Source: an uncultured Candidatus Saccharibacteria bacterium (lineage in GTDB: Bacteria > Patescibacteriota > Minisyncoccia > Phycocordibacterales > UBA2100). Taken from it: DNA of 64,000 nt. The translations under genes and the position numbers were made by a program. Shown here one piece after another: positions 7,471 to 57,351 of the stretch. Each line of letters starts with the position of its first letter. Position 1 is the first letter of the stretch. The stretch lies in assembly GCA_964654205.1 (NCBI GenBank), contig CAZZHR010000001.1, forward strand, positions 1,953-65,952. The letters are read 5' to 3'. The notes below the pieces were generated by a model that searched no databases, was not told the origin of the DNA, and saw nothing but the letters and a program-made list of their open reading frames with translations.

Positions 7471-7599
7471 AGATGTGCAGAACGCCTAAAGCTCACGTAT
7501 TATACGCGCGTAGTTTTTCCTGGGAAGCGCCGCTATCATTCCAGACCATGTGTACAACCTGTGTACAACCTGTGCATTAGTGTTCGTCCGGCGCCACTG

Positions 7600-7628
7600 T
7601 TGTCATCCGTCGTTTTTTAGCGTATAGT
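7600..7628 (+). promoter_or_regulatory. sigma-70-type promoter of rpmH (-35 TTGTCA, 17-nt spacer, -10 TATAGT); predicted transcription start only 1-3 nt before the ATG
   Basis: TTGTCA at 7600-7605 and TATAGT at 7623-7628; the ATG is at 7637, implying a leaderless or near-leaderless mRNA. Confidence 0.45.
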
Positions 7629-7636
7629 CCTGACCT

Positions 7637-7777
7637 ATGAGACGAACCTATCAGCCGAAGAAGCGAAAGCGAGCGAAGACGCACGGTTTCCGTTCGCGCA
7701 CGACGACCTCGAAGGGGCGAAAAGTGCTTCGCCGTCGTCGCCAGAAGGGCCGCAAGCGCCTCTCTGCGTCGGTATAA
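7637..7777 (+). CDS. rpmH: 50S ribosomal protein L34
   Basis: Translates to [46 protein letters not shown] (46 aa), a near-consensus L34. Absent from the ORF track because it is under 60 aa. Confidence 0.95.
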
Positions 7778-7784
7778 TTTTTGG

Positions 7785-8111
7785 ATGCCCAAGAAAAATC
7801 GCCTTACGGGCGCTGAGATACAGAGGATACGCGCCCCCCGCCGGGTCTCTTCCGCGCTCTTTTCCCTTTCGTTTTCGTCGTCGAGTGGTGATGGTGCGAG
7901 ATTTGCCTGCGTGGTATCCAAGAAGGTCTCCGGGAAGGCGGTGGTTCGCAACGCGATAAAGAGGAGGTGTCGGGAGATTATCCGGACACATATCGCACGG
8001 CTTCCCGCCGGGACGTACGTCCTGTATGCGAAGAAGGGCGCAGTCACTGCTGCGTATAAAGAGTGCGAGGCTGACATCCTAAAGCTCCTGAGCGGCCTCC
8101 GGGGCGCGTAA
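7785..8111 (+). CDS. rnpA: RNase P protein component
   Basis: 108 aa basic protein directly after rpmH; central motif KKVSGKAVVRNAIKRRCRE matches RnpA; conserved rpmH-rnpA-yidC synteny. Confidence 0.85.
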   Translation: MPKKNRLTGAEIQRIRAPRRVSSALFSLSFSSSSGDGARFACVVSKKVSGKAVVRNAIKRRCREIIRTHIARLPAGTYVLYAKKGAVTAAYKECEADILKLLSGLRGA

Positions 8112-8284
8112 AGCAAGGCGGCGGTACGGCCCGGTAGGACAATTGGGGATTGCCTTGATGCAGACGAGCTGACGTTGTAAAGAATAATGCGCAAGTGGTG
8201 CGGTATACGTGGTATGACGAGCCGACGGCGGCATCTATGCCAAATTGTACTGACCGGGTACAATACGCCGCAACCTACCCGGCT

Positions 8285-9025
8285 ATGATCAGCTCCATCT
8301 TCCATGCTCTCGTCTACGACCCCATATACAATGCGCTCGTCTACTTCGTCGACATCGTGCCGGGACACGATGTCGGAATTGCCGTCATTATCGTGACGAT
8401 AATCGTGCGCATCATCCTCTACCCTCTTTCTAAGAAGGCCATCAAGGCGCAGATGGATATGAAGCGCGTTGCGCCGGAGATAGAAGAGATAAAGAAAAAG
8501 TTCAAGGACAAGCCCGAAGAACAGGGGCGCGCCATATTCGCACTCTACCGGGAGCGCGGCGTGAGTCCCTTTGCCGGGCTCTTCCTGCTCCTCGTCCAGC
8601 TCCCGATACTGCTCGGACTCTATTTCGTGTTCGCACAGGGAGGTCTTCCCAGCATCAACACGGATATTCTCTACGCATTTGTGCCAACGCCGGGGGCGGT
8701 CGACATGGAATTCCTCGGCCTCATCGATATGGGCGGCAAGAGCCTCATCCTCGCGCTCCTCGCGGGCGTCACACAATTCGTATACACACGGCTCTCGATG
8801 GGGCCACGCGGTTCTGCGGTAGCGGCCGAGGCGTCTTTCTCAGCGGAAATGGCGCGCACGTTTGACCTCCAGGCGCGGTATGCGCTCCCCCTTATCGTTG
8901 CGGGCATCGCGTACTTCATCGCCGCTGCCGCTCCTCTCTACTGGCTCACAAGCAATCTTTTCATGATAGGTCAGGAGCTTCTCTCGGGACGTCGGTTCAA
9001 CCCCAAGACCGAAAAGGACTCATAG
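8285..9025 (+). CDS. yidC: membrane protein insertase YidC/Oxa1 family (short form)
   Basis: IAVIIVTIIVRIILYPLSKK...MKRVAPEIEEIKKKFKDKPEE... aligns with the YidC core (60KD_IMP). Start placed at the ATG (MISSIF...) that matches the mature start of Gram-positive YidC; the GTG at 8195 adds a non-hydrophobic 30 aa. Confidence 0.8.
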   Translation: MISSIFHALVYDPIYNALVYFVDIVPGHDVGIAVIIVTIIVRIILYPLSKKAIKAQMDMKRVAPEIEEIKKKFKDKPEEQGRAIFALYRERGVSPFAGLFLLLVQLPILLGLYFVFAQGGLPSINTDILYAFVPTPGAVDMEFLGLIDMGGKSLILALLAGVTQFVYTRLSMGPRGSAVAAEASFSAEMARTFDLQARYALPLIVAGIAYFIAAAAPLYWLTSNLFMIGQELLSGRRFNPKTEKDS

Positions 9026-9238
9026 CCGTACCCTCACAGACGACCTGTACTTAGGGGGCAATCGCGCCCGATATTAGAACACGCGCTCTCTGGCGGCTGT
9101 ATTGCCGAGTGTCTACCTCACGGGGTCTACCCCATGAGATACTCGCTGCGAACGTCCGCTTTCCGATTTTCGCATTACAACATGCGTTTAATGCATTGGT
9201 ATTGCCGATTAACTATCTCACGGGGTATAGTGCCCTCC

Positions 9239-48034: not shown

Positions 48035-49564
48035 CTATTTGGCGTATTCAATCACCCGGGTCTCGCGGATGACTGAGACCTTGATTTCACCTGGGTACTG
48101 AAGCTCCTTTTCTATCTTGTCCGCGATATCGCGTGCGAGCTTACGGGCTGCGAGATCGTCGAGCGCCTCGGGCTTTACGATGACGCGCAGCTCTCTGCCA
48201 GCGGAGATCGCGAAGCTCCTATCGACGCCGGGCTCGTTGTTGGCTATTGCTTCGAGTTCTTCAAGGCGCTTGATGTAATTTTCCACCGAGTCGCGGCGAG
48301 CGCCCGGGCGGCCGCCGGAAATCGCGTCGGCGACCTGGACTATCATGCTCTCTGGCGTCTCGTACGGGTACTCTTCGTGGTGCGCCTGCATCGCTTTCAC
48401 GACAGCTTCGTCGATGCCGAACTTCTGCAAGATGCGGCGGCCAATCTCGACGTGTGTGCCGGGCACCTCATGGTCGACTGCTTTGCCGATGTCGTGGAAG
48501 AGCGCACCGGCACGCGCCACTGCGACGTCGGCACCGAGTTCTTCGGCGAGCATGCCGGCGAGGTGCGCGACCTCTACCGAGTGATCCAGTACATTCTGTC
48601 CGTATGAAGTGCGGAAATAGAGGCGACCGAGGATCATGATGAGCTTCGGGTCGAGGTTGGGGACTTTCGCCTCGTACGCGGCCTCCGCGCCCTTCTTCTT
48701 GATGATGTTGTTGATCTCTTGTTCCGCCTTCTGCACGGCCTCTTCTATTTTGGCCGGCTGGATGCGGCCGTCGAGAATGAGGTTCTCGAGCGCGATGCGC
48801 GCTATCTGGCGGCGAATCGGGTCATAGCTCGAGAGCGTGAGGGTGCCTGGCGTGTCGTCGATGATGACGTCGACACCCGTCGCCCGTTCAAATGAGCGGA
48901 TATTGCGGCCTTCCTTGCCGATTATCTTGCCTTTTATCTCGTCGTTCGGCAGGCTGATTGTCGTTGCGAGCACGTCGGAGACGACGCTGTTGCCGAGGCG
49001 GTGCACGGCTGTCGTGAGGATCTCGTTGGCTCGCTGCTCGAGCCTCTCATTGCTCGCGATTTCGAGTTTGCGCATCCTGTTCTCAAGGTCGGTGGAGTAC
49101 TGTTTTTCTACGGATTCGAGAAGATCCTTCTTTGCTTCGTCGGCGGTGAGTCCGGCGACCTTCTCAAGCTTCTCCTGTTGCTCAGCGATAAGCTTTTCCG
49201 ACTCTTCACGAGCGGCCTGAAGCTCCTCCATCTTCTTGTTGATATTTTCCTGCTCCGAATCTATCGCCCCTTGCCGTTTGTCGAGAAGCTCTTCCTTGCG
49301 CACGAGTCGCTCTTCAGTCGCCCTGAGGTCACGCTCTCTCGATTTGTACTCGGTCGTGAGCTGGTCGACCTTCTCCTGGCCTTTCCTCTCCGCATCCTCG
49401 ATAACTTTCTTCGCACGCTCTTCTGCATCGAGCATCATCTTGCGAATCTGGAGCTCCATCGAGCCTTTTTTGCCCAGGGAGATGATGTAACGCAGGAAAT
49501 ATCCCACGCCAATACCGACTACGCCTGCGATGGCGAGAAGGATGAATACGAATTGTAATGACAT
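48035..49564 (-). CDS. rny: ribonuclease Y
   Basis: N-terminal TM, coiled coil, KH domain (IGKEGRNIRSFERATGVDVII), HD domain (FHDIGKAVDHE); 509 aa. Confidence 0.9.
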   Translation of the reverse strand: MSLQFVFILLAIAGVVGIGVGYFLRYIISLGKKGSMELQIRKMMLDAEERAKKVIEDAERKGQEKVDQLTTEYKSRERDLRATEERLVRKEELLDKRQGAIDSEQENINKKMEELQAAREESEKLIAEQQEKLEKVAGLTADEAKKDLLESVEKQYSTDLENRMRKLEIASNERLEQRANEILTTAVHRLGNSVVSDVLATTISLPNDEIKGKIIGKEGRNIRSFERATGVDVIIDDTPGTLTLSSYDPIRRQIARIALENLILDGRIQPAKIEEAVQKAEQEINNIIKKKGAEAAYEAKVPNLDPKLIMILGRLYFRTSYGQNVLDHSVEVAHLAGMLAEELGADVAVARAGALFHDIGKAVDHEVPGTHVEIGRRILQKFGIDEAVVKAMQAHHEEYPYETPESMIVQVADAISGGRPGARRDSVENYIKRLEELEAIANNEPGVDRSFAISAGRELRVIVKPEALDDLAARKLARDIADKIEKELQYPGEIKVSVIRETRVIEYAK

Positions 49565-49791: not shown

Positions 49792-50364
49792 CTAGTTCAG
49801 GACTTTGTCGATGATGCCGTACTTGACGGACTCTTCTGCATCCATGAAGAAGTCGCGGTCCACATCTTTCTCGATACGGTCGAGCTTCTGGCCGGTGTTC
49901 TTGGCGAGGATTTTGTTGAGGCGCTCGCGCATCTTGAGGATTTGCTTGGCCGTGATTTCGATGTCCGCCGCCTGACCCTCCGCGCCGCCGTGTGGCTGGT
50001 GAATCATGACTTCGGCATTGGGAAGCGCGAAGCGCTTGCCCTTTTCGCCGGCAGAGAGCAGGACCGCGGCCATAGAGGCCGCCATACCGACGCACACCGT
50101 CGATACATTGGGCTGGATGTGGTTCATAGTGTCGAGTATCGCGAAGCCGGCTGAGACCTGCCCGCCGGGGGAGTTGATGTAGAAGGAGATGTCCTTCTTC
50201 GGGTCTTCGGATGCGAGGAAGAGGAACTGTGCGACCACGAGGTTGGCCACATCGCCGTCTATCGGACCGCCGAGGAAGACGATGCGCTCTTTGAGGAGGC
50301 GTGAGTAAATATCGTATGCGCGCTCGCCCATGGAAGTCTTCTCGACAACCATCGGCACGAGCAT
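49792..50364 (-). CDS. clpP: ATP-dependent Clp protease proteolytic subunit
   Basis: From the internal [53 protein letters not shown]...INSPGG aligns colinearly with ClpP; catalytic Ser context GMAASMAA, His in MIHQPHGG. Confidence 0.85.
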
Positions 50365-50603
50365 CTGCGCCCGAATGTCGAGCGAGGAAGTACTGAGGTC
50401 AGTAGACCGAACGTGGGCTTTGATGTCATTCATATTGAGTGGAGTGTACCCCATGGGATACCCACACTCAAGATTCCACCGACGCGCCGTATTTCCGAGT
50501 GGGTCTCGATTTCGCCATAAAATTCCGCGCTTCTATCCCACGGGGTGTAGCAAAGTCTTTCCGCTCCGCGCAAATCGGATAGCCGAGATGCTATTATTGC
50601 CGC

Positions 50604-51356
50604 ATGGAAAAAGAGCTGCAGGACCTCGGACTTTCGGAAAAAGAAGCGAAAGTGTATCTTGCCGCTCTTGAGATAGGCCGCGCTACTGCAGACCAGCTAT
50701 CGAAACACTCGAAGATCAAACGCCCGACCACGTACGTGCAGCTGGAGTCGCTGATGAAAATGGGGCTCATGAGTACGTACGAGGAAGACCACAAGACGTA
50801 CTTCGCGCCAGAATCCCCCGAGCTTCTCAAGCGCCTGCTCGCCCGTCAACAAGAATCGCTCCGTACAAAAGAGTCCGAACTCACGGCGCTTCTGCCCGAA
50901 CTCCTGCGTCAGTACGAAAGCGCTGGCGAGCGTCCTGTCGTACGATTTTTCCCGGGGAAGGAAGGAATAAAATTAGCTAGGGAAGAATTGTTGACCACCA
51001 AGGACAAAAGTATAGATGCTGTTTTTTCGTACGAACATCTGCTCAATATTTATACGGAGCAGGAGCTTGATGAGTACTCACACAAGCGTAAGGGGTTGGG
51101 GATTCACTCCCGTGCAATCTATATGAATAAGGAGTTCTTTTCGAGAGCGGAGTTGGATTCGCTTACTGAGCGGAAATTTATCCCTCCGCAACTATTATCA
51201 CTCAACATCCACATTCACGTGTGTGATACGAGGACGACCCTATTCCCAATGGAGGGGTCACTATTTGCAATCATTATCGATAGCGCACAAATCGCGTCAG
51301 GTGTTAAAGCAATATTCAATTATCTTTGGATGAACGCGTCTGCAGGGCAAAAATAA
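50604..51356 (+). CDS. TrmB-family transcriptional regulator
   Basis: N-terminal winged HTH LGLSEKEAKVYLAALEIGRATADQLSKHSKIKRPTTYVQLESLMKMGL typical of TrmB; 250 aa. Confidence 0.7.
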   Translation: MEKELQDLGLSEKEAKVYLAALEIGRATADQLSKHSKIKRPTTYVQLESLMKMGLMSTYEEDHKTYFAPESPELLKRLLARQQESLRTKESELTALLPELLRQYESAGERPVVRFFPGKEGIKLAREELLTTKDKSIDAVFSYEHLLNIYTEQELDEYSHKRKGLGIHSRAIYMNKEFFSRAELDSLTERKFIPPQLLSLNIHIHVCDTRTTLFPMEGSLFAIIIDSAQIASGVKAIFNYLWMNASAGQK

Positions 51357-51358
51357 AA

Positions 51359-51396
51359 CCGGGGGCGATGGTGCCGCCCCCGGCAGTCGTTGTTTG
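51359..51396 (+). terminator. hairpin terminator after the TrmB-like gene (could act bidirectionally)
   Basis: CCGGGGGCG-atggtg-CCGCCCCCGG followed by CAGTCGTTGTTTG; 2 nt after the stop codon. Confidence 0.5.
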
Positions 51397-52548
51397 ACCT
51401 GAAGTGGTCCAGAGACCCTCCAGGTGTCAGCACGAGGGTTCGGCTGACTTTCCAATCAAGCACGAATTGCCCTTTGGTCGTCTCGACCAGCTAGCAACCG
51501 TCGCCTTTGAGCAGCCTCCGCATGGAGGTCCTCCGTGAAGTATGCCCCAAAGAACGGGTAGGGCAGGGGCGTTTGAGCCCTAACCCGAGTGGGAAAGCGG
51601 ACGCTTCCCCATCTGTCGAGATACTAGCATAGTCAAAATGATTCGTCAAGACAATTTCGTGCAGGAGCCGAATCATGTCAAATTCATTTGTCAGTATATA
51701 GCAGTGAAATGGCTCTAATTAACGGCCTTTTCTAATGTGGATGGTTGATATGTCAGAAACACTTGACAAAATAGAAACGGCAGTATAGACTCGCGTTGTC
51801 AGCTTCGGTTGACTTGTTCTGCGAAGCTTTATGCGAAGCAGAACGCCCGCTTTAAGGAGCCTGTCTGCCGGATGGCAGAGCCCGCAAGGAGAAGCGGTCG
51901 TTGAAAACTAAATAGAGAACAATTCGAATCTTGAACGTCTGGCGGCATGGAATGGCCGACAGACGCTAGAAACCGGCGAGCGTGTCCTGCGCCTCCCCCC
52001 TGAAGAGCAATCTTTCGGGGGGCGGGCGCAGGGCGCACTCGCGATTCCTTGCCCGCGCATCAGTGCGACTTCGCTACCAATAGAAGGCACACATTCGCCA
52101 ACATTTTTCGTACGCGAAGCTTTCTCACGGTGCGTGGCAAAGGGATCCCCTTCGGGGTCCTTGTGGGTTGCCATCGACAACCTTCTCACCGCTCCAGGCG
52201 GCATTGGAGAGAAGAAACAGTAGGGCGCGCGGCATACGCTGCGTGTGTACGCTGTTTTCGAGAATCCTGGTGTGACCATGACGGTTGCATTGGGTGCGGA
52301 ATGGAGCTCCGTGCGTGCTAGTGGGCGACGGCCCGGCATGCAAAGGGGGACGGCGGGCTGCGCAGCTTGTCGTCACAACCCCAGCTCCTGCAATTCCGGT
52401 GCGGCTCATGAGAATGGGTCTGGCGCACCGATGAGGGCGGCTGGCGCGCGAAAGCGCGACGCCGCCCGACCAATGTTCTTCGTTTGTGAATGGCGGTGTA
52501 TGTCGCGCGACCGCGAAAACGGTGCGACACCACAACAAGGGAGGTTCC

Positions 52549-52680
52549 ATGAAGGAACTCTTCAAGGCCCTTCGGGGTGCCCGCATCATTGCGGAGGGTG
52601 TGGAGGGTGGTCGCAAGATCATTCACTACCTCCTCACCGATGGGCGGGTGGTCGAAATCGTCAGCACGCTGGCGAAGTAG
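52549..52680 (+). CDS. tiny ORF (43 aa) with strong Shine-Dalgarno site
   Basis: AAGGGAGG + 4 nt + ATG; MKELFKALRGARIIAEGVEGGRKIIHYLLTDGRVVEIVSTLAK. Nested in a longer GTG-start ORF-track entry. Confidence 0.4.
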   Translation: MKELFKALRGARIIAEGVEGGRKIIHYLLTDGRVVEIVSTLAK

Positions 52681-53097
52681 ACCGCAACAAATCCTACAGC
52701 TATGCCTCGCGGCTGAGAGTGCGGGGAAGTCGACACAAATGTCGGCGGATGTGGAGGGTCACCCATGGCCTACTACATTGTTGCCGGTGTCGTCTACCGG
52801 TCTTTAAAAGACGCACAGCAGGCTCAGCGCTCGAAGTAGCGCGGCTCTGTGTCACCGCCCTGAAAACCAGCGCAAGCTGAACAAGGGGTTGCCGGTTTGA
52901 GCGATGTGCGACGGCGGCGAGCCGAAAGAGCGCACGCGAAGGTCTCCGGCGTAAAAGCATGGCCGAGTGGTACTCGCTAAAAACCCGAGGCCGGGGGGAC
53001 TCGACCATCCTCCTCTTTCTTGAGCCCGCGATTCGCCCGCCGGCGAAGTCGCGGGTTCATAAAGTTCTCACAACCTTCACAACCCAGGGAGATGGAC

Positions 53098-53295
53098 ATG
53101 AAGGATTACGTTCTGGGCTTTGCGGTCGCGTGTGTGCTGTTCCTCGGGTACGAGGTGTACGAGGCGAAGCGGGTGCAAACCCCGCAGACCGGGTACTCCT
53201 ACCTCGAGGGGTGGCTGGACTACGGATCGGAGACCGACTTCTCCGACTTCGGGTACGACTTTTACGTAGACGTACCCGACGAAATCCCGACGTAA
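53098..53295 (+). CDS. small membrane protein (~65 aa) with acidic/aromatic C-terminus
   Basis: AGGGAG + 7 nt + ATG; one TM (VLGFAVACVLFLGY) then a D/E/Y/F-rich tail. The ATG at 53092 lies too close to the Shine-Dalgarno site. Confidence 0.45.
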   Translation: MKDYVLGFAVACVLFLGYEVYEAKRVQTPQTGYSYLEGWLDYGSETDFSDFGYDFYVDVPDEIPT

Positions 53296-53317
53296 CCGCA
53301 GGGCGACGGACTTCGCC

Positions 53318-53363
53318 CACTCATTTCAGCTCGCGAATGGTCGTGGGTCGATAGAGATAGGAG
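53318..53363 (+). repeat. direct repeat copy 1 (~40-46 bp) containing a Shine-Dalgarno-like GGAG
   Basis: TTTCAGCTCGCGAATGGTCGTGGGTCGATAGAGATAGGAG; 37/40 identical to copy 2 at 54279-54318. Confidence 0.7.
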
Positions 53364-53454
53364 ATGCCCGATAAAAATTCTCAACCTCACCCAACATGCT
53401 GCGACTGCCGACCAGGCGGCGGCCGGTGTCTACGAGCCCACCGATAAAAAGCTC

Positions 53455-53829
53455 GTGCAGGCGCTCATTACGTTTGATGAGTTGCCGAGTGCTGACCTCA
53501 TCCGTCAGCGCGCCGAGGAGCTTGCTCGGTTCGCAAAAGCGACCGATGCTGAGGCCGTCATGGTTGGCGGCGCGCCCTTCTTCATGGCGCCCCTTGAGGC
53601 CGCACTGCGTGCGGTGAACATCATTCCGGTCTATGCATTCTCCAAGCGCGAAAGCGTGGAAGAGAAGCAGCCGGACGGGTCGGTCAAAAAGACCCAGGTG
53701 TTCAAACACGCAGGGTTCGTGCCCGCTTGCGATTGCGGCGGTGCGACCGGTTCTTTCCCGAGCGAAGAACTCGGGACTCTTTTTCAGGACATCGTTGGAG
53801 TCGGACAGACGTCCGGCGCGGTGTGCTGA
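53455..53829 (+). CDS. hypothetical protein; N-terminus unresolved (frame opens at 53296; an ATA at 53371 follows a Shine-Dalgarno site)
   Basis: Protein-like composition extends upstream of the GTG at 53455 back to ...KILNLTQHAATADQAAAGVYEPTDKK... without any ATG/GTG/TTG. AGGAG at 53359-53363 with ATA 7 nt downstream. Confidence 0.35.
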   Translation: MQALITFDELPSADLIRQRAEELARFAKATDAEAVMVGGAPFFMAPLEAALRAVNIIPVYAFSKRESVEEKQPDGSVKKTQVFKHAGFVPACDCGGATGSFPSEELGTLFQDIVGVGQTSGAVC

Positions 53830-53841
53830 TAGGAGGGAAGC

Positions 53842-54138
53842 ATGGACGATCGAATGATTGCCGAAATCTACTGCCTGCAAGAGGGCGGTACCGTGTACGC
53901 GCGCGTCGGATGGGACGATGCCGTGGAAACATGCAGCCAAGTAATTCGGAGTTCGGTCCACTGGACGCGCGACGAAAAGTCCCCGCGCGAGCGCAATTTC
54001 CGGTGTGACGTCTCGGCTCTCTGGGTCAAAAAATATGCGGACAGGAAAGTCCCGCCAAAGGGTGCCGAACGCATGTTCGCGTTCGTGACGGTCGACAAAG
54101 TCACGGGCAAAATCAGAACATTGGAGGTGATGAGATGA
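53842..54138 (+). CDS. hypothetical protein (98 aa)
   Basis: TAGGAGGG Shine-Dalgarno + 5 nt + ATG; stop overlaps the next start (ATGA), indicating translational coupling. Confidence 0.45.
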   Translation: MDDRMIAEIYCLQEGGTVYARVGWDDAVETCSQVIRSSVHWTRDEKSPRERNFRCDVSALWVKKYADRKVPPKGAERMFAFVTVDKVTGKIRTLEVMR

Positions 54139-54551
54139 GAATCGAAATCGTGGCCCCGAAGCGCCGCAGCGATGCGGCGCGCGTTCTCGCCGATCGACGG
54201 TATCACCACCGCGTCGCGCGCAACAAGAAGACGTACTCCCGCAAAGGGAGAATCTCCTCGAAGAAATTCGAGGACTCTTTTCAGCTCGCGAATGGTCGTG
54301 GGTTGATAGAGATGGAGGCGTGTCATACGCACCGCATTCGGACTGTTCCTTATCGCCCTCTGGGCGTTCTACGCGGAATACATGGTCGACATGTATCCGC
54401 GCTACGCAGCGTCGCCGTACGGCTGGCCTTCGCTGGTCTTGTGGTGGGCCAACTTCGTCGGCGTCACCGGCGGATGCCTTTACGCCTCGTACATCTTTCT
54501 TCGCCCCCGGTCACACCGGGGGTGATTTTTTATGGCACAGATAATGTTTGA
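54135..54551 (+). CDS. hypothetical basic protein; C-terminal extent doubtful
   Basis: GGAGGTGA + 4 nt + ATG. The N-half (MRIEIVAPKRRSDAARVLADRRYHHRVARNKKTYSRKGR...) is protein-like; after the direct repeat the frame reads as low-quality sequence while a membrane-protein-like frame (+1) opens. Confidence 0.3.
   Translation: MRIEIVAPKRRSDAARVLADRRYHHRVARNKKTYSRKGRISSKKFEDSFQLANGRGLIEMEACHTHRIRTVPYRPLGVLRGIHGRHVSALRSVAVRLAFAGLVVGQLRRRHRRMPLRLVHLSSPPVTPGVIFYGTDNV
54273..54318 (+). repeat. direct repeat copy 2
   Basis: TTTCAGCTCGCGAATGGTCGTGGGTTGATAGAGATGGAGG; 955 bp downstream of copy 1. Confidence 0.7.
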
Positions 54552-54609
54552 AAAGAAAACGCGGCTGGTCGGGAGACCAGCCGCGTGAAGCGTCGAGAAC
54601 ATGAGAACT

Positions 54610-55710
54610 TTAAGCGCGCTTTTTGGCGTCTTCGCGCGCCTGCCTACGGCGAATCATGAGGAGTGCCCAGTGCCCCGCTCGATACGTGTATCGGAGCGGG
54701 TACGTGACATACCGAACGATGCGCCAGAGGATTTCAAGGACGACCATGACAGGCCACGCGACAATCATCGCGAGAACGAGCACGCCGACCCATCCCCACA
54801 TACCGATTTGTTCTGCGACCCACGCCGCGCCCGAGAGCACGAAGAGGGGGTCGTAGACGAGCATCGCGAGTGTCGCGAACGCGCCTGCGGTAAGCGTGAT
54901 TTTGCCCACCGTGTGCACGGTGCTCGTGGCCGCCTTGACCTTGGTCCACAGTGCCACGCCCTTGGTAGCCTTCGCAACTTTGAGCGAGCGAGTGATAAGG
55001 CTCGTCGCCCCGAAGACGATGATGCCCACATCGAGTGTCGCGTGTGCAACTTCGCCCCACGTCGGTCGCTCGCCGCGCACGATGCGCTCCTCGAGGTCGG
55101 TGATGCCACCCGTGAAGAGTCGGATGCCGACGCCGAGGGAACTGCGAATCGGATTGCGACGCATCACGCCGTCAACAAGCTCGAAGCGTGCGAGGAGTTC
55201 GTGCCCCAAGCGCTTGAGTTCTTTGATGGCGATGACTCCGTACTCATCTTTCGTGAGTGCCGGAACTCCTGGCTTGCCGCGCAGTCTCTCCATGATGCTC
55301 TGAAACCCGGCATACATGTCGAATGCGGCGGAGCCGTTGGTGCGGTAGTACTCGATGAGCGGAAGTGCCTCGTGCGGATGTTGCGCGAGAACCTCGTGGA
55401 ACTCTTTCATGTCGCCGTAGGCTCTGAAGAGTTCCGCGGCGATTTTCGGGTACCGTTTCGCCGCGAGGTAAGACTCCAGGCCGAACGTGCTGCAGATCGA
55501 GAGTGTGTCCGGAGCTACCGCACGCTTGGCCTCGGGCGCGAGAGGGCAGTGGTCGGCGGTATTACCAGCAAGTGCGGTCGTAATTGCCAGGAGCTCGAAG
55601 TCTTGCTTGCCACGCAGCTGCCAGAAAAATGTAGCTGCGAGGGCGATGATGAGCGCGTAGACGGAGACGCGTCCAAGCGTCTCGCCGGATACTTTCAAGC
55701 GCAGACGCAT
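54610..55710 (-). CDS. hypothetical polytopic membrane protein
   Basis: Several TM helices (YALIIALAATFFW..., GIIVFGATSLI..., GWVGVLVLAMIVAWPVMVVLEILW). Start set at the internal ATG (MRLRLKVSG...). Confidence 0.45.
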   Translation of the reverse strand: MRLRLKVSGETLGRVSVYALIIALAATFFWQLRGKQDFELLAITTALAGNTADHCPLAPEAKRAVAPDTLSICSTFGLESYLAAKRYPKIAAELFRAYGDMKEFHEVLAQHPHEALPLIEYYRTNGSAAFDMYAGFQSIMERLRGKPGVPALTKDEYGVIAIKELKRLGHELLARFELVDGVMRRNPIRSSLGVGIRLFTGGITDLEERIVRGERPTWGEVAHATLDVGIIVFGATSLITRSLKVAKATKGVALWTKVKAATSTVHTVGKITLTAGAFATLAMLVYDPLFVLSGAAWVAEQIGMWGWVGVLVLAMIVAWPVMVVLEILWRIVRYVTYPLRYTYRAGHWALLMIRRRQAREDAKKRA

Positions 55711-55891
55711 AGCGTCCTCCTTTTGCTGAATGTCGATGATCAACCGGCCTACCTTATGCAATATTTCTCTTAAAGAGTCAATGAACGGTCCTGCGAGTGT
55801 CATTTACTTTTCATCAGATTGTGCTATAATTGAAGGAGTGGTTGTTGCGTGTAGCGTTTGCGTCCCACAGAAACATCCAACAAAGGGACTC

Positions 55892-56167
55892 ATGATGAAT
55901 ATTGCAAGGCATGACATAGACTCCATGCTCGAGCGTGGTGCGGCGGAACTGCGCCGCCGCGTTCCCGATGCGTCGCGACTGACCGACAACGACTTTTTGC
56001 ATGTCGCGGACATGTTTGACCTCCCGCTCGACGAGCGGGTCACGAACTGTCCGGTTCGTCGCGTTCTCTTCGTGCGCGCTTACCGCGCAGAGGAGAACGT
56101 GGATTTCACGCTGCTTCACAGCTTGGTGTGGCAGCGCTACGAAATGCTTGGCGCACTGGCGGCGTGA
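55892..56167 (+). CDS. hypothetical protein (~91 aa)
   Basis: Internal ATG pair (MMNIARHDIDSMLERG...); the upstream part of the ORF-track model is overlapped by the divergent gene. Weak support. Confidence 0.3.
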   Translation: MMNIARHDIDSMLERGAAELRRRVPDASRLTDNDFLHVADMFDLPLDERVTNCPVRRVLFVRAYRAEENVDFTLLHSLVWQRYEMLGALAA

Positions 56168-56223
56168 CATCGTTCTTGTGGCGTAAGCGCGTAGGGGCTC
56201 CCAGCTGGGAGCCTTTTGCTTTT

Positions 56224-57351
56224 TTAGTGCTCGTGGTTGTGGCCGTGCGAGATGGGTTCGGGGTTGCCTTCGAGGAAGCGCAGCACCATCTCGTTGCGCA
56301 TCATGTGCACGATGTGGGTACGAAGCGTCGCGGGATTAGCCTTGGGGTAATGCTCGCGTGCATGCATAAGCTCGTGCTCGACATCTTTATCACTCGGCTC
56401 GATTTTTTCCGCCTGCGCGATTTTGCCGAGGATGAGACGCACCTTTGCGCGCTTGTCGGCACCCTCTTTCCAGCTCTCGCGGATTTCTTCGCGAGTTTTT
56501 TTCGTCTGCGCGAGGTAGCTTTCAAATGTCTGACCGATGCGCGCGAGATCATCGGTCATGCGCGCTTCCATGTCGGCGAGTTCGTAGTCGAGGAGCGTTT
56601 TGGGGTAGTGAATCGTAGATTTCTCGACGAGTTCGTCGAGGATTGCCGTACGCTTCTTCTCCTGCGCGCGTGTTTTTTTCTCCTGGCCGAGGTTCTTACG
56701 CACGGCGTCGGAGAATGCAGCGGCATCGGGGTAGCCGAGCGACTGGACGAACGCGTCGTCGAGCTCCGGCAAATCTTTCACCTCGGCGGCGCGCGACTCT
56801 TCGGCAGCTTTCTGCGGCTCGGCGCCCTTCTCCACCTTATCTATACGGTGCCTTTCACGGCGCAGGTGCGTGAGCGCGTCCTCGTGCTCCTTGTCTGTGA
56901 CCTCGGTGTCTTCGAGGATTGAGCGATGCGTTTCAGAAATCTTCTTGTAGTCGGCCAGCTGTATCTCGGGAGCGAGCGCAGCACGAGCGGTAAATGTGAG
57001 CGGCTTACCGCTCTCTGGCTCACTTGTTGTGACTCGTGGTGTGTCCACAATCGAGAAATCCTGCTTCGCGAGAAGTTCGGGGAGTTCATTCTGAATCGCT
57101 TCTTCCGCGGCGGCGCGCATGATGGCGGCCTCCCCGTACACCCGGACGATTGCGTCTACCGGTGCTTTGCCTTTGCGAAAGCCGTCGAGTGACGCGTCGC
57201 GCTGGATGTTTTTGAGCGCGCTTGCGCGGTAGTTCTGCACTGTCTCCGCCGAGAGCTCCGCACTGAGCTCGACTTCCCACGCCGACTCATCGCGCGAGAC
57301 CCTTATGTTCGTAGCGTTTGACCCCAGACCTTTCTCATCAGTTTTAGACAT
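56224..57351 (-). CDS. tig: trigger factor, short form (375 aa)
   Basis: N-terminal ribosome-binding signature GFRKGKAP and a C-terminal helical arm domain. About 60 aa shorter than canonical, suggesting a reduced or absent PPIase domain. Confidence 0.85.
   Translation of the reverse strand: MSKTDEKGLGSNATNIRVSRDESAWEVELSAELSAETVQNYRASALKNIQRDASLDGFRKGKAPVDAIVRVYGEAAIMRAAAEEAIQNELPELLAKQDFSIVDTPRVTTSEPESGKPLTFTARAALAPEIQLADYKKISETHRSILEDTEVTDKEHEDALTHLRRERHRIDKVEKGAEPQKAAEESRAAEVKDLPELDDAFVQSLGYPDAAAFSDAVRKNLGQEKKTRAQEKKRTAILDELVEKSTIHYPKTLLDYELADMEARMTDDLARIGQTFESYLAQTKKTREEIRESWKEGADKRAKVRLILGKIAQAEKIEPSDKDVEHELMHAREHYPKANPATLRTHIVHMMRNEMVLRFLEGNPEPISHGHNHEH

Follow-up and report, generated by a model that had tools for sequence, protein, structure and literature searches.

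We analyzed a window of 64 kb (the whole stretch of DNA, 64,000 nt), in which a segment of 1.15 kb at positions 51397-52548 had been singled out by a preliminary description as GC-rich, devoid of a credible open reading frame (ORF) and dense in stable hairpins, and had been proposed to be either a large structured RNA or a decayed element. Judged from its sequence, this segment is a conserved control region made of two back-to-back transcription units, located just after the gene of a TrmBL2-like regulator and kept in about 20 related loci (cited below by their L numbers). The rightward unit begins with a structured RNA of about 690 nt and the leftward unit carries a conserved ORF of 10 codons. 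The proposal of one large structured RNA is supported for 51797-52488 on the + strand, and does not extend to 51397-51650, which belongs to a separate unit of the - strand; the divergent promoter/operator middle and the opposite transcription of the left third had been missed. The segment is not GC-rich either, with 56.4% against 57.2% for the whole window, and it contains an AT-rich block of 196 bp (51601-51796) at 40% GC. It has no long credible ORF, as had been said, and the micro-ORF preceded by GGAGG on the - strand (51523-51491) had been overlooked. The region is organized in this way:

50604-51356, + strand: TrmBL2-like regulator gene, 250 aa (Pfam, AlphaFold, Foldseek)
51358-51385, both strands: predicted bidirectional intrinsic terminator, 11-bp stem with 9 G-C pairs
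51386-51490, - strand: 3' untranslated tail of the leftward transcript, hairpin-rich, sequence not conserved
51491-51523, - strand: micro-ORF MRRLLKGDGC, ATG at 51523-51521 and TAG at 51493-51491
51524-51614, - strand: leader of the micro-ORF transcript, with ribosome-binding site (RBS), hairpins and a G+C-rich block
51649-51621, - strand: promoter P-, TTGACG, 17-nt spacer, TAGTAT (promoter scan, conservation)
51751-51768, unstranded: palindrome O1, TGTCA-N8-TGACA, overlapping the -35 box of P+
51763-51791, + strand: promoter P+, TTGACA, 17-nt spacer, TAGACT (10 of 12 consensus positions)
51797-51813, + strand: palindrome O2, TGTCA-N8-TGAC, at about +1 of P+
51797-52488, + strand: large structured RNA, about 690 nt (conservation, covariation)
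51814-51844, + strand: 31-nt hairpin module with loop AGCUUUAUGCGA, an optional insertion (-14.5 kcal/mol)
51841-51902, + strand: helix H1, GAACGCCCGCUU with AAGCGGUCGUU (RNAalifold; 86% of cells paired)
51861-51881, + strand: window-specific hairpin inside H1 (fold)
51936-51965, + strand: hairpin H2, conserved loop GGAAU (z -4.4)
51976-52042, + strand: long hairpin H3, 67 nt, CGCCUCCCCCC...GGGGGGCGGGCG (-57.6 kcal/mol, z -7.6)
52043-52147, + strand: core P1 domain, closing helix GAUUCCUUGCC...GGCAAAGGGAUC and an inner helix (z -5.2)
52143-52160, + strand: hairpin hp, GGAUCCC-CUUC-GGGGUCC (-14 kcal/mol, z -3.1)
52161-52434, + strand: 3' domain, helices 52165-52183, 52184-52210, 52214-52258 and 52266-52294; further helices 52223-52248, inside 52214-52258, and 52295-52307 with 52384-52392, long-range (RNAalifold)
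52435-52488, + strand: terminator-like hairpin (stem 52435-52467, -28 kcal/mol) and its tail GACCAAUGUUCUUCGUUUGUG
52549-52680, + strand: first ORF of the downstream operon, 43 aa, RBS GGGAGG, with relatives at the same position in L015, L020 and L029

Comparative evidence supports the region 51797-52488 of the + strand as a structured RNA, with compensatory changes in at least a dozen helices. It aligned with at least 12 distinct relatives, from its predicted start around 51797 to the hairpin at 52435-52467. Folding of 51798-52548 gave -366 kcal/mol (z -6.6) for the + strand against -303 kcal/mol (z -3.6) for the - strand. For the 5' half, RNAalifold proposed 60 pairs on ten sequences, 22 of them with compensatory changes; 93.3% of the cells were paired, compared to 41-54% when the pairing partners were slid by 1-3 columns, and the number of pairs changed on both sides dropped from 22 to 4-10 in these controls. 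None of 500 shuffles reached the observed values, for all five measures, a test that is inflated by the relatedness of the sequences; the slid controls keep this relatedness, yet score far lower. The 3' domain behaves in the same way on six sequences: 54 pairs were proposed, 29 with compensatory changes (9-14 when slid), 88.2% of the cells were paired (41-54% when slid), and the covariation score of 0.55 (at most 0.22 when slid) was reached by 0 of 500 shuffles. In H3, 95% of the cells are paired over 27 pairs, and nine pairs are changed on both sides. H2 was missed by RNAalifold on the MAFFT alignment because of register shifts; it was formed in all ten homologues folded singly, by stems as different as CGUCUG/CAGACG, CACCCG/CGGGUG, CUCUCG/CGAGAG and CCGCAGG/CCUGCGG. 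The preliminary description had made covariation of the hairpins in related genomes one touchstone of its proposal, and the compensatory changes observed go well beyond the controls. A TTGACA-17-TAnAnT promoter lies upstream, the + strand is the favoured one, and transcription of this strand is predicted.

The four hairpins that had been named individually were found where they had been placed, and fold stably. The UUCG hairpin, GGAUCCCC-UUCG/CUUC-GGGGUCC at 52143-52160, is hp (-14 kcal/mol, z -3.1); GCGCG-GAAA-CGCGC is included in the larger hairpin 52435-52467; and the CGCCUCCCCCC...GGGGGGCGGGCG helix is the 67-nt hairpin 51976-52042. The fourth, CCUCCGCAUGGAGG at 51516-51529, is indeed present, and is more than a hairpin as it corresponds to the RBS and start-codon region of the micro-ORF. 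Another UUCG hairpin, at 51797-51813, is a hairpin of the RNA and at the same time a DNA palindrome that occurs once more, in DNA not transcribed from P+.

The RNA corresponds to no family that we searched for. A cmscan of the whole window against Rfam 15 at gathering thresholds retrieved four tRNAs only, and the same search on six related loci tRNAs only. At E<=10, the interval 51000-53200 gave nothing except sub-threshold chance matches to eukaryotic miRNA and snoRNA hairpins, restricted to the long hairpin. The models of GOLLD, ROOL, HEARO, OLE, raiA, group I/II introns, RNase P, tmRNA and SRP (signal recognition particle) RNA did not reach the gathering threshold; the preliminary description had recognized no signature of the last three, in agreement with the absence of any match to them at gathering thresholds and at E<=10. 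ARAGORN found no tmRNA. A CsrB-like sponge (considered for the GGA motifs), 6S RNA, RNase P and the guide RNA of a transposon nuclease were rejected, having no model match or partner gene. No description of this RNA was found in the literature searched. We consider that it represents a new class of RNA, though of a kind already known (ornate RNAs or structured leaders), accompanied by a new family of micro-genes.

Peripheral parts of the RNA are variable. The 31-nt module is present or absent at two sites among L025 5177-5600, L026 4901-5330 and L027 4645-5110, despite the fact that these three loci encode an identical regulator protein; it looks as if a structured module had recently been gained or lost. 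No copy was found outside this RNA when the module was searched as a mobile repeat in the window and the loci. In L015 (6130-6260, - strand, on a Kaiserbacteria contig), a tandem duplication of about 60 nt was observed inside the 5' domain.

The only part of the RNA common to the long and short forms of the leader is the P1 core. Six loci (L002, L009, L010, L013, L030 and L033) have a short form, in which the leader is just 200-500 nt long, and share with the long forms a domain of about 105-130 nt closed by GAUUCCUU.../...AAAGGGAUC (52043-52147 in the window). Across long and short forms, 78% of the cells of the core are paired compared to 35-50% in controls; in the count on the 5' half, 96% of the cells of the core (helix 3 of that count) are paired, and 7 of its 16 pairs have compensatory changes, with up to four pair types. 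A covariance model of the core (R1) scored 48-106 bits on the + strand of 15 full-length loci, at most 28 bits on the reverse strand, and 40.7 bits on L006, which is cut by the contig end; it found no further copy of the core in the window or in the loci of the divergent regulator subfamily. The sequence GGGAUC that follows the core pairs with a downstream GAUUCC-like strand to form hp (52143-52160). In 13 sequences, 90% of the cells of hp are paired, and one position shows four pair types. As the 5' strand of hp is the 3' strand of the closing helix (GGGAUC), the two helices are mutually exclusive. In L013, a C-G to U-A double change maintains hp, whereas the competing closing helix does not have that compensation. 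Both helices are conserved, and their exclusivity is the layout of a candidate switch. We also observed that the H2 loop GGAAU (51936-51965) is complementary to AUUCC of the 5' strand of the closing helix (52043-52048) and, in most relatives, to the 3' strand of hp (52154-52160); a participation of this loop-strand contact in the switch is possible.

The position of the RNA relative to genes was then considered. Same-strand ORFs were always found after it (about 12 loci), preceded by an RBS in every locus. In L009, L013 and L033 only about 17-50 nt separate the core from the start of the ORF behind it, and this interval contains no terminator. In L032 the RNA domain is missing, but promoter, palindromes and first ORF are all present. 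In the long form, the RNA reaches the terminator-like hairpin GGGCGGC...GCCGCCC, built around GCGCG-GAAA-CGCGC, whose stem is changed on both sides in L001 (GGGUGGCC/GGCCACCC) and L025 (GGGUGGCUCG/CGAGCCACCC). This hairpin (52435-52467) is likely to be the 3' end of the RNA or an attenuator. Directly behind it, the similarity to the closest relative, L019 (whose regulator is 88% identical), breaks off. In L001 and L017 a canonical terminator follows shortly after it. The first small gene starts 60-110 nt further. In the window this is the ORF at 52549, which has 53% identity with its relative in L015 (tblastn); in L019, L001, L004 and L025 an unrelated ORF of about 70 codons stands first instead. 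At least four unrelated families of first ORFs were found after the RNA, and searches of Pfam, PHROGs and NCBIfam assigned none of them. Because the downstream content differs among relatives, we regard promoter, operators and RNA as a constant head, and the genes as a variable tail. Terminator-like sites are not enriched in the operon (7, compared to 4.2 +/- 2.3 in shuffles).

The variable tail of the window (52549-56200, about 3.6 kb) is composed of small ORFs, preceded by good RBSs, and of one 390-codon ORF overlapped by an antisense ORF of 397 codons. None has a Pfam assignment, and the content of this island differs even among the closest relatives. The search of PHROGs with the island proteins gave one weak match only, and the PDB sequence search gave no assignment. 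The only island protein conserved across several loci is a basic peptide of 55-60 residues (MRIEIVAPKRRSDAARVLADRRYHHRVARNKK..., 54135-54310), with relatives at L009 7104-7289, L004 13614-13814 and L010 8513-8662 and in L015 and L016; the 138-codon ORF of the window probably overruns the real gene. The peptide precedes a sigma-70 region 4 protein in L009 and weakly matches PHROG 20887, a family of no known function. Between small ORFs of the island we found a 55-nt direct repeat (53304-53358 and 54259-54313, 85% identical) with the core UUCAGCUCGCGAAUGGUCGUGGGUYGAUAGAGAU. A similar motif is present just 5' of ORF starts elsewhere (L001 12226-12262, L032 5000-5050), and the repeat is a candidate for a further element of the operon that is conserved without being coding.

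The two promoters are of the sigma-70 type and lie back-to-back inside the AT-rich block. Start sites are predicted near 51614 for P- and near 51797-51799 for P+. A pattern search found P+ as TTGACA-N17-TATACT/TATAAT in all related loci examined except L005, L013 and L014; in 13 of 16 loci it also found P-, separated by about 113 nt from the -35 box of P+. L013 and L033 have P+ with TATATA/TATACA. The pattern TGTCA-N8-TGAC has three matches in the 64-kb window where 0.37 is expected, and all three are at P+. The O1 palindrome is kept in nearly all related loci, and the half-sites are invariant whereas the spacers are free. In the RNA, O2 corresponds to a 5'-terminal hairpin, GUCAGC-UUCG-GUUGAC, and its two natural variants (TGGC, TGAT) would still pair as G-U. 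Since O1 is not transcribed from P+, we read both elements as operators, and the two TGTCA-N8-TGAC(A) palindromes are probably the binding sites of a regulator. In a divergent regulator subfamily (L007 3718-4030 and L011 7234-7571), the second palindrome is TGTTTAT...ATAACA and not TGTCA...TGAC; in these two loci a tRNA gene is present within about 230-270 nt after the homologous promoter, in place of the structured RNA.

The gene found constantly upstream of the micro-ORF unit, the promoters and the RNA encodes a protein composed of a winged helix-turn-helix, a long coiled-coil helix and a C-terminal alpha/beta (PLD-like) domain. Pfam TrmB matched its N-terminal part only (E 1e-14); the AlphaFold model (mean predicted local distance difference test, pLDDT, 85) matched TrmBL2 over its full length with Foldseek (E 3e-14). 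The regulator has 432 homologues at E<1e-30, whose named sources are all metagenome-assembled genomes (MAGs) of the Patescibacteria group, one '[bacterium]' excepted, and no description of TrmB-type regulators in Patescibacteria was found in the literature searched. Archaeal TrmB and TrmBL2 have the same three-part fold, and this archaeal family binds palindromic DNA. Having the TrmBL2 fold, the regulator is therefore the obvious candidate for binding the palindromes, and we propose that it does so. The resemblance has limits: likeness in sequence to the archaeal proteins is restricted to the N-terminal winged helix, and the candidate site TGTCA-N8-TGACA differs from the archaeal TGM motif.

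The leftward unit is organized around the micro-ORF (ATG CGG AGG CTG CTC AAA GGC GAC GGT TGC TAG), whose ATG is preceded at 6 nt by the ribosome-binding site GGAGG (51534-51530). Its relatives consist, at the same position, of an RBS, a start and 5-32 codons ending in Gly-Asp-Gly-x-stop, for example MRDTHWRFGDGE, MRLLACRGDGQ, MTPRLMIGDGQ, MMRLNFGGDGC and MRPHFKGGDGN. Of the related loci examined, only L005, L007 and L008 lack this pattern, L017 being too short to tell. The codons of the G-D-G motif vary synonymously in 18 loci (GGC/GGT/GGA/GGG, GAC/GAT), in which the peptides are 10 to 32 residues long. When the pattern "RBS + start ... GDGx-stop" was searched in 558 kb of non-redundant loci on both strands, 18 matches were obtained, and 18 of 18 were at the micro-ORF position. 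The positions of RBS, start and stop are thus kept and conservation is at the level of amino acids, from which translation is predicted. The longer peptides matched no Pfam or NCBIfam family, and no description of the micro-ORF was found in the literature searched. This micro-gene family is new and has been overlooked by gene callers; to our knowledge, its 10-codon members are among the shortest conserved ORFs.

The transcript carrying the micro-ORF is predicted to be about 255 nt long, with about 105 nt between the stop codon and the shared terminator at which it would end. That terminator (51358-51385) has T-runs on both strands, the stronger being that of the - strand, and is predicted to serve two transcripts, that of the micro-ORF (-) and that of the regulator gene (+). 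The nhmmer alignments of relatives begin only at about 51479 and leave the 3' tail unaligned; beyond the micro-ORF the - strand contains nothing but the antisense of the regulator gene. The leader has a 5'-terminal hairpin (51611-51591) followed by a G+C-rich hairpin or pseudoknot block (51589-51544), and includes a block, ATGCCCCAAAGAACGGGTAGGGCAGGGGC, nearly identical in L001 and L019. Two alternative hairpins, GGAGG-A-CCUCC and CCUCC-AUGC-GGAGG, cover the RBS and start codon of the micro-ORF, in the region of CCUCCGCAUGGAGG (51516-51529). Both are retained in L019, where GGAGG/CCUCC is changed on both sides to GGAGA/UCUCC. RNAalifold recovered one weak 7-pair helix only in this leader because the sequences align poorly, and the pseudoknot, seen by eye, is unproven. 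Base-pairing between the leftward and rightward transcripts was considered and dropped, as RNAduplex energies compared to shuffles gave z near 0 (-1.2 to +1.4). As for the role of the micro-peptide, we considered that it may be an arrest peptide, or that the regulator may have it as ligand or partner.

The relatives of the control region were collected in several ways. A genome search with the regulator protein led to eight Patescibacteria MAGs, with labels including Paceibacteria, Kaiserbacteria and Adlerbacteria. Together with the flanking genes, these relatives assign the window to MAGs of the Paceibacteria/Kaiserbacteria type. With nhmmer, the flagged DNA aligned over about 700-1000 nt located 3' of the homologous regulator gene in L001, L004 and L006, and a profile additionally recovered L008 and L002. 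On the contigs of regulator homologues, 0.5-2 kb without credible genes always followed the regulator, even when all other neighbours were different. A scan of metagenomes for three conserved DNA blocks, in which the regulator gene was not used, yielded four loci, and the regulator was upstream in the 3 of 3 with enough sequence; as only four loci were found, two of them duplicating L004, the three blocks proved too stringent to enlarge the family appreciably. In the window, the region is surrounded by housekeeping genes, all annotated on the - strand:

48035-49564, - strand: RNase Y gene
49792-50454, - strand: ClpP gene
56224-57351, - strand: trigger factor gene (tig)

The order clpP-regulator-...-tig is common to several lineages, and the divergence of the regulator roughly parallels that of the flanking ClpP, RNase Y and trigger factor: in L001 the regulator is 71% identical, tig 67% and RNase Y 87%. 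This parallel divergence and shared position point to a long vertical residence.

Taken together, these observations incline us, by a small margin over the contrary, to see at this locus a conserved, regulator-controlled leader RNA whose core gates a variable operon in cis, the micro-ORF unit being a second output or input of the switch. The TrmBL2-like dimer would bind both palindromes and shut P+; upon its release, the long RNA would be made from P+. The core of about 105 nt closed by GAUUCCUU/AAAGGGAUC would compete with the downstream hairpin for the GGGAUC strand and act in cis, as a conformational switch or as a platform for the binding of a factor. It would thereby decide whether RNA polymerase or ribosomes pass the terminator-like hairpin into the operon, and the remaining helices would be lineage-specific elaborations. 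Several points weigh against this interpretation. The start sites, the 3' ends and the link between operators and regulator are predictions, and compensatory changes were counted on the very alignments, of only 6-13 sequences, from which the structures had been derived. Little covariation is seen in GAUUCCUU/AAAGGGAUC because both strands are almost invariant, and the terminal pair of the closing helix is broken in 3 of 13 sequences. A simple terminator scan missed the hairpin 52435-52467 since its U-run is interrupted, the tail being only U-rich. No coherent set of genes is found downstream, and a riboswitch sensing a metabolite for one pathway is unlikely because the downstream genes differ between loci and have no known function. 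Known cis-regulatory leaders are far smaller than this RNA, with its 690 nt and about a dozen helices, and a discrete unit ending in a terminator-like hairpin suits a stand-alone RNA equally well.

In the main rival reading, the RNA would be a stand-alone ornate RNA acting in trans, as ribonucleoprotein scaffold, sponge or ribozyme, with the ORFs expressed by incidental read-through. Its size and many helices, the strong covariation over its full length, the gain and loss of optional modules at its periphery, as seen in large structured RNAs, the strong conserved promoter and the discrete 3' boundary at a conserved hairpin, beyond which the closest relative diverges, all agree with this possibility. 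We hold it to be doubtful nonetheless: some related loci retain only about 130 nt, directly before an ORF, and one retains none; every copy of the RNA found is accompanied by the regulator-controlled promoter and by same-strand ORFs; apart from the regulator, no gene for a partner protein is conserved beside it; and no known ornate RNA family is matched. Alternatively, the whole region would originate from a mobile element that has integrated (a satellite, an island or what is left of a prophage) and represent its immunity or early region; the RNA would then serve this element, for instance in antitermination, replication or packaging. A repressor-like gene, back-to-back promoters, palindromic operators and a run of small ORFs do recall a phage switch; this run includes sigma-70 region 4, RNA polymerase alpha C-terminal domain or HTH_3 proteins in some loci, its cargo differs among close relatives, and one small ORF weakly matches a PHROG. 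We nevertheless judge such an origin quite improbable, given that the island shows no integrase or recombinase, structural or replication gene and no flanking repeats, that neither a relative of the regulator (protein profile) nor a copy of the RNA core (pattern) was found in IMG/VR, and that blastn against phage and plasmid collections (INPHARED, PLSDB) gave no match. The regulator, moreover, diverges roughly in step with its housekeeping neighbours at a position shared by lineages. As for a decayed protein-coding gene, or hairpins due to chance, the overlapping ORFs of 90-211 codons with Arg/Pro/Cys-rich translations could be taken as remnants. The preliminary description had correctly noted that the long ORFs overlap on both strands. 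None of those of 44-211 codons matched Pfam, and tblastn found no similarity in homologous loci where the DNA is 70-80% identical, the largest protein databases having been left out of this search. Conservation bears on RNA pairing, through compensatory substitutions in the helices; no frame is conserved, indels are not multiples of three (the 31-nt module), a conserved promoter drives the region, and fold z-scores range from -5 to -7.6. Decay or chance is consequently the explanation to which we give hardly any credit.

Comparison with known systems places this RNA between two kinds. With ornate RNAs (OLE, ROOL, GOLLD, raiA, HEARO) it shares a length of hundreds of nt, many covarying helices, conserved loops, optional peripheral hairpins and a distribution in one lineage. 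It has no similarity to their Rfam models and, unlike them, is always located between a regulator-controlled promoter and same-strand ORFs, and is universal only in its core of about 105-130 nt, the rest being present in some lineages. With cis leaders (riboswitches, attenuators, protein-binding leaders) it shares a promoter-proximal, 5' untranslated position, a domain closed by a long helix whose 3' strand can form a neighbouring hairpin, and a terminator-like hairpin before the first gene. Unlike these leaders, it is 3-6 times longer, its downstream genes are not one functional family, its competing hairpin is not itself a terminator, and it has no known ligand or binding protein. Processive antitermination RNAs, such as put of phage HK022, the Bacillus EAR element and the LoaP-associated leaders, are another term of comparison. 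The RNA is similarly promoter-proximal, independent of the cargo, and followed by a multi-gene operon with terminator-like sites; no Rfam family matched it at either threshold, the presence of models of this sort in Rfam not having been checked.

The arrangement also recalls peptide switches. Arbitrium (AimR-AimP-aimX), Rgg/SHP and ComR/ComS are built from a transcription factor, the gene of a small peptide, and a non-coding RNA that is regulated. Our locus likewise links a DNA-binding regulator to a tiny ORF whose C-terminus is its conserved part, and to a palindrome-bearing promoter that drives a long non-coding RNA. It differs from RRNPP and arbitrium systems in that the regulator has the TrmBL2 fold, without tetratricopeptide-repeat peptide-binding domain, and in that the micro-peptides are very short (10-32 residues) and lack a signal sequence, with no export or import genes seen; unlike arbitrium, the micro-ORF locus was not found in phage collections. 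A bolder view, to which we attach a low probability, is that the TrmBL2-like protein, the short GDGx peptide and the ornate RNA of about 690 nt form one regulatory device specific to the Candidate Phyla Radiation (CPR). The same low probability covers, jointly, the two further parts of this view: the peptide, as ligand of the regulator or ribosome-arrest sensor, would set the state of the regulator, and the RNA output would license fast-changing small proteins of an episymbiotic lifestyle. If true, this device would be a factor-peptide-RNA switch like that of arbitrium phages, built of unrelated parts, chromosomal and vertically inherited.

Much of the diversity of bacteria belongs to the CPR/Patescibacteria, almost none of which are in culture and whose regulation and non-coding RNAs have been described very little. 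In this context the locus offers a new class of large structured RNA with strong comparative support, and a concrete, testable pair of candidate regulator and operators. Even if it is only a leader, the RNA would be an unusually elaborate one; it provides structural studies with a new multi-domain target, in which the limits of the core are set by the existence of naturally short and long forms. The hypervariable island of small proteins is a plausible place for functions of host interaction or conflict.

Two minor observations concern other parts of these loci. In L013, the region that follows the first small ORF of this short-form locus (7585-9096, about 1.5 kb long) contains few ORFs and many stable-looking hairpins; it has no Rfam match and no similarity to the RNA of the window, and may be another structured RNA. 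Finally, the four tRNA genes of the window (Arg-TCG, Gly-GCC, Pro-TGG and Gly-TCC) are single genes of the - strand scattered among the protein genes upstream, between 42971 and 46843, and the tRNAs of related loci are scattered in a similar fashion.

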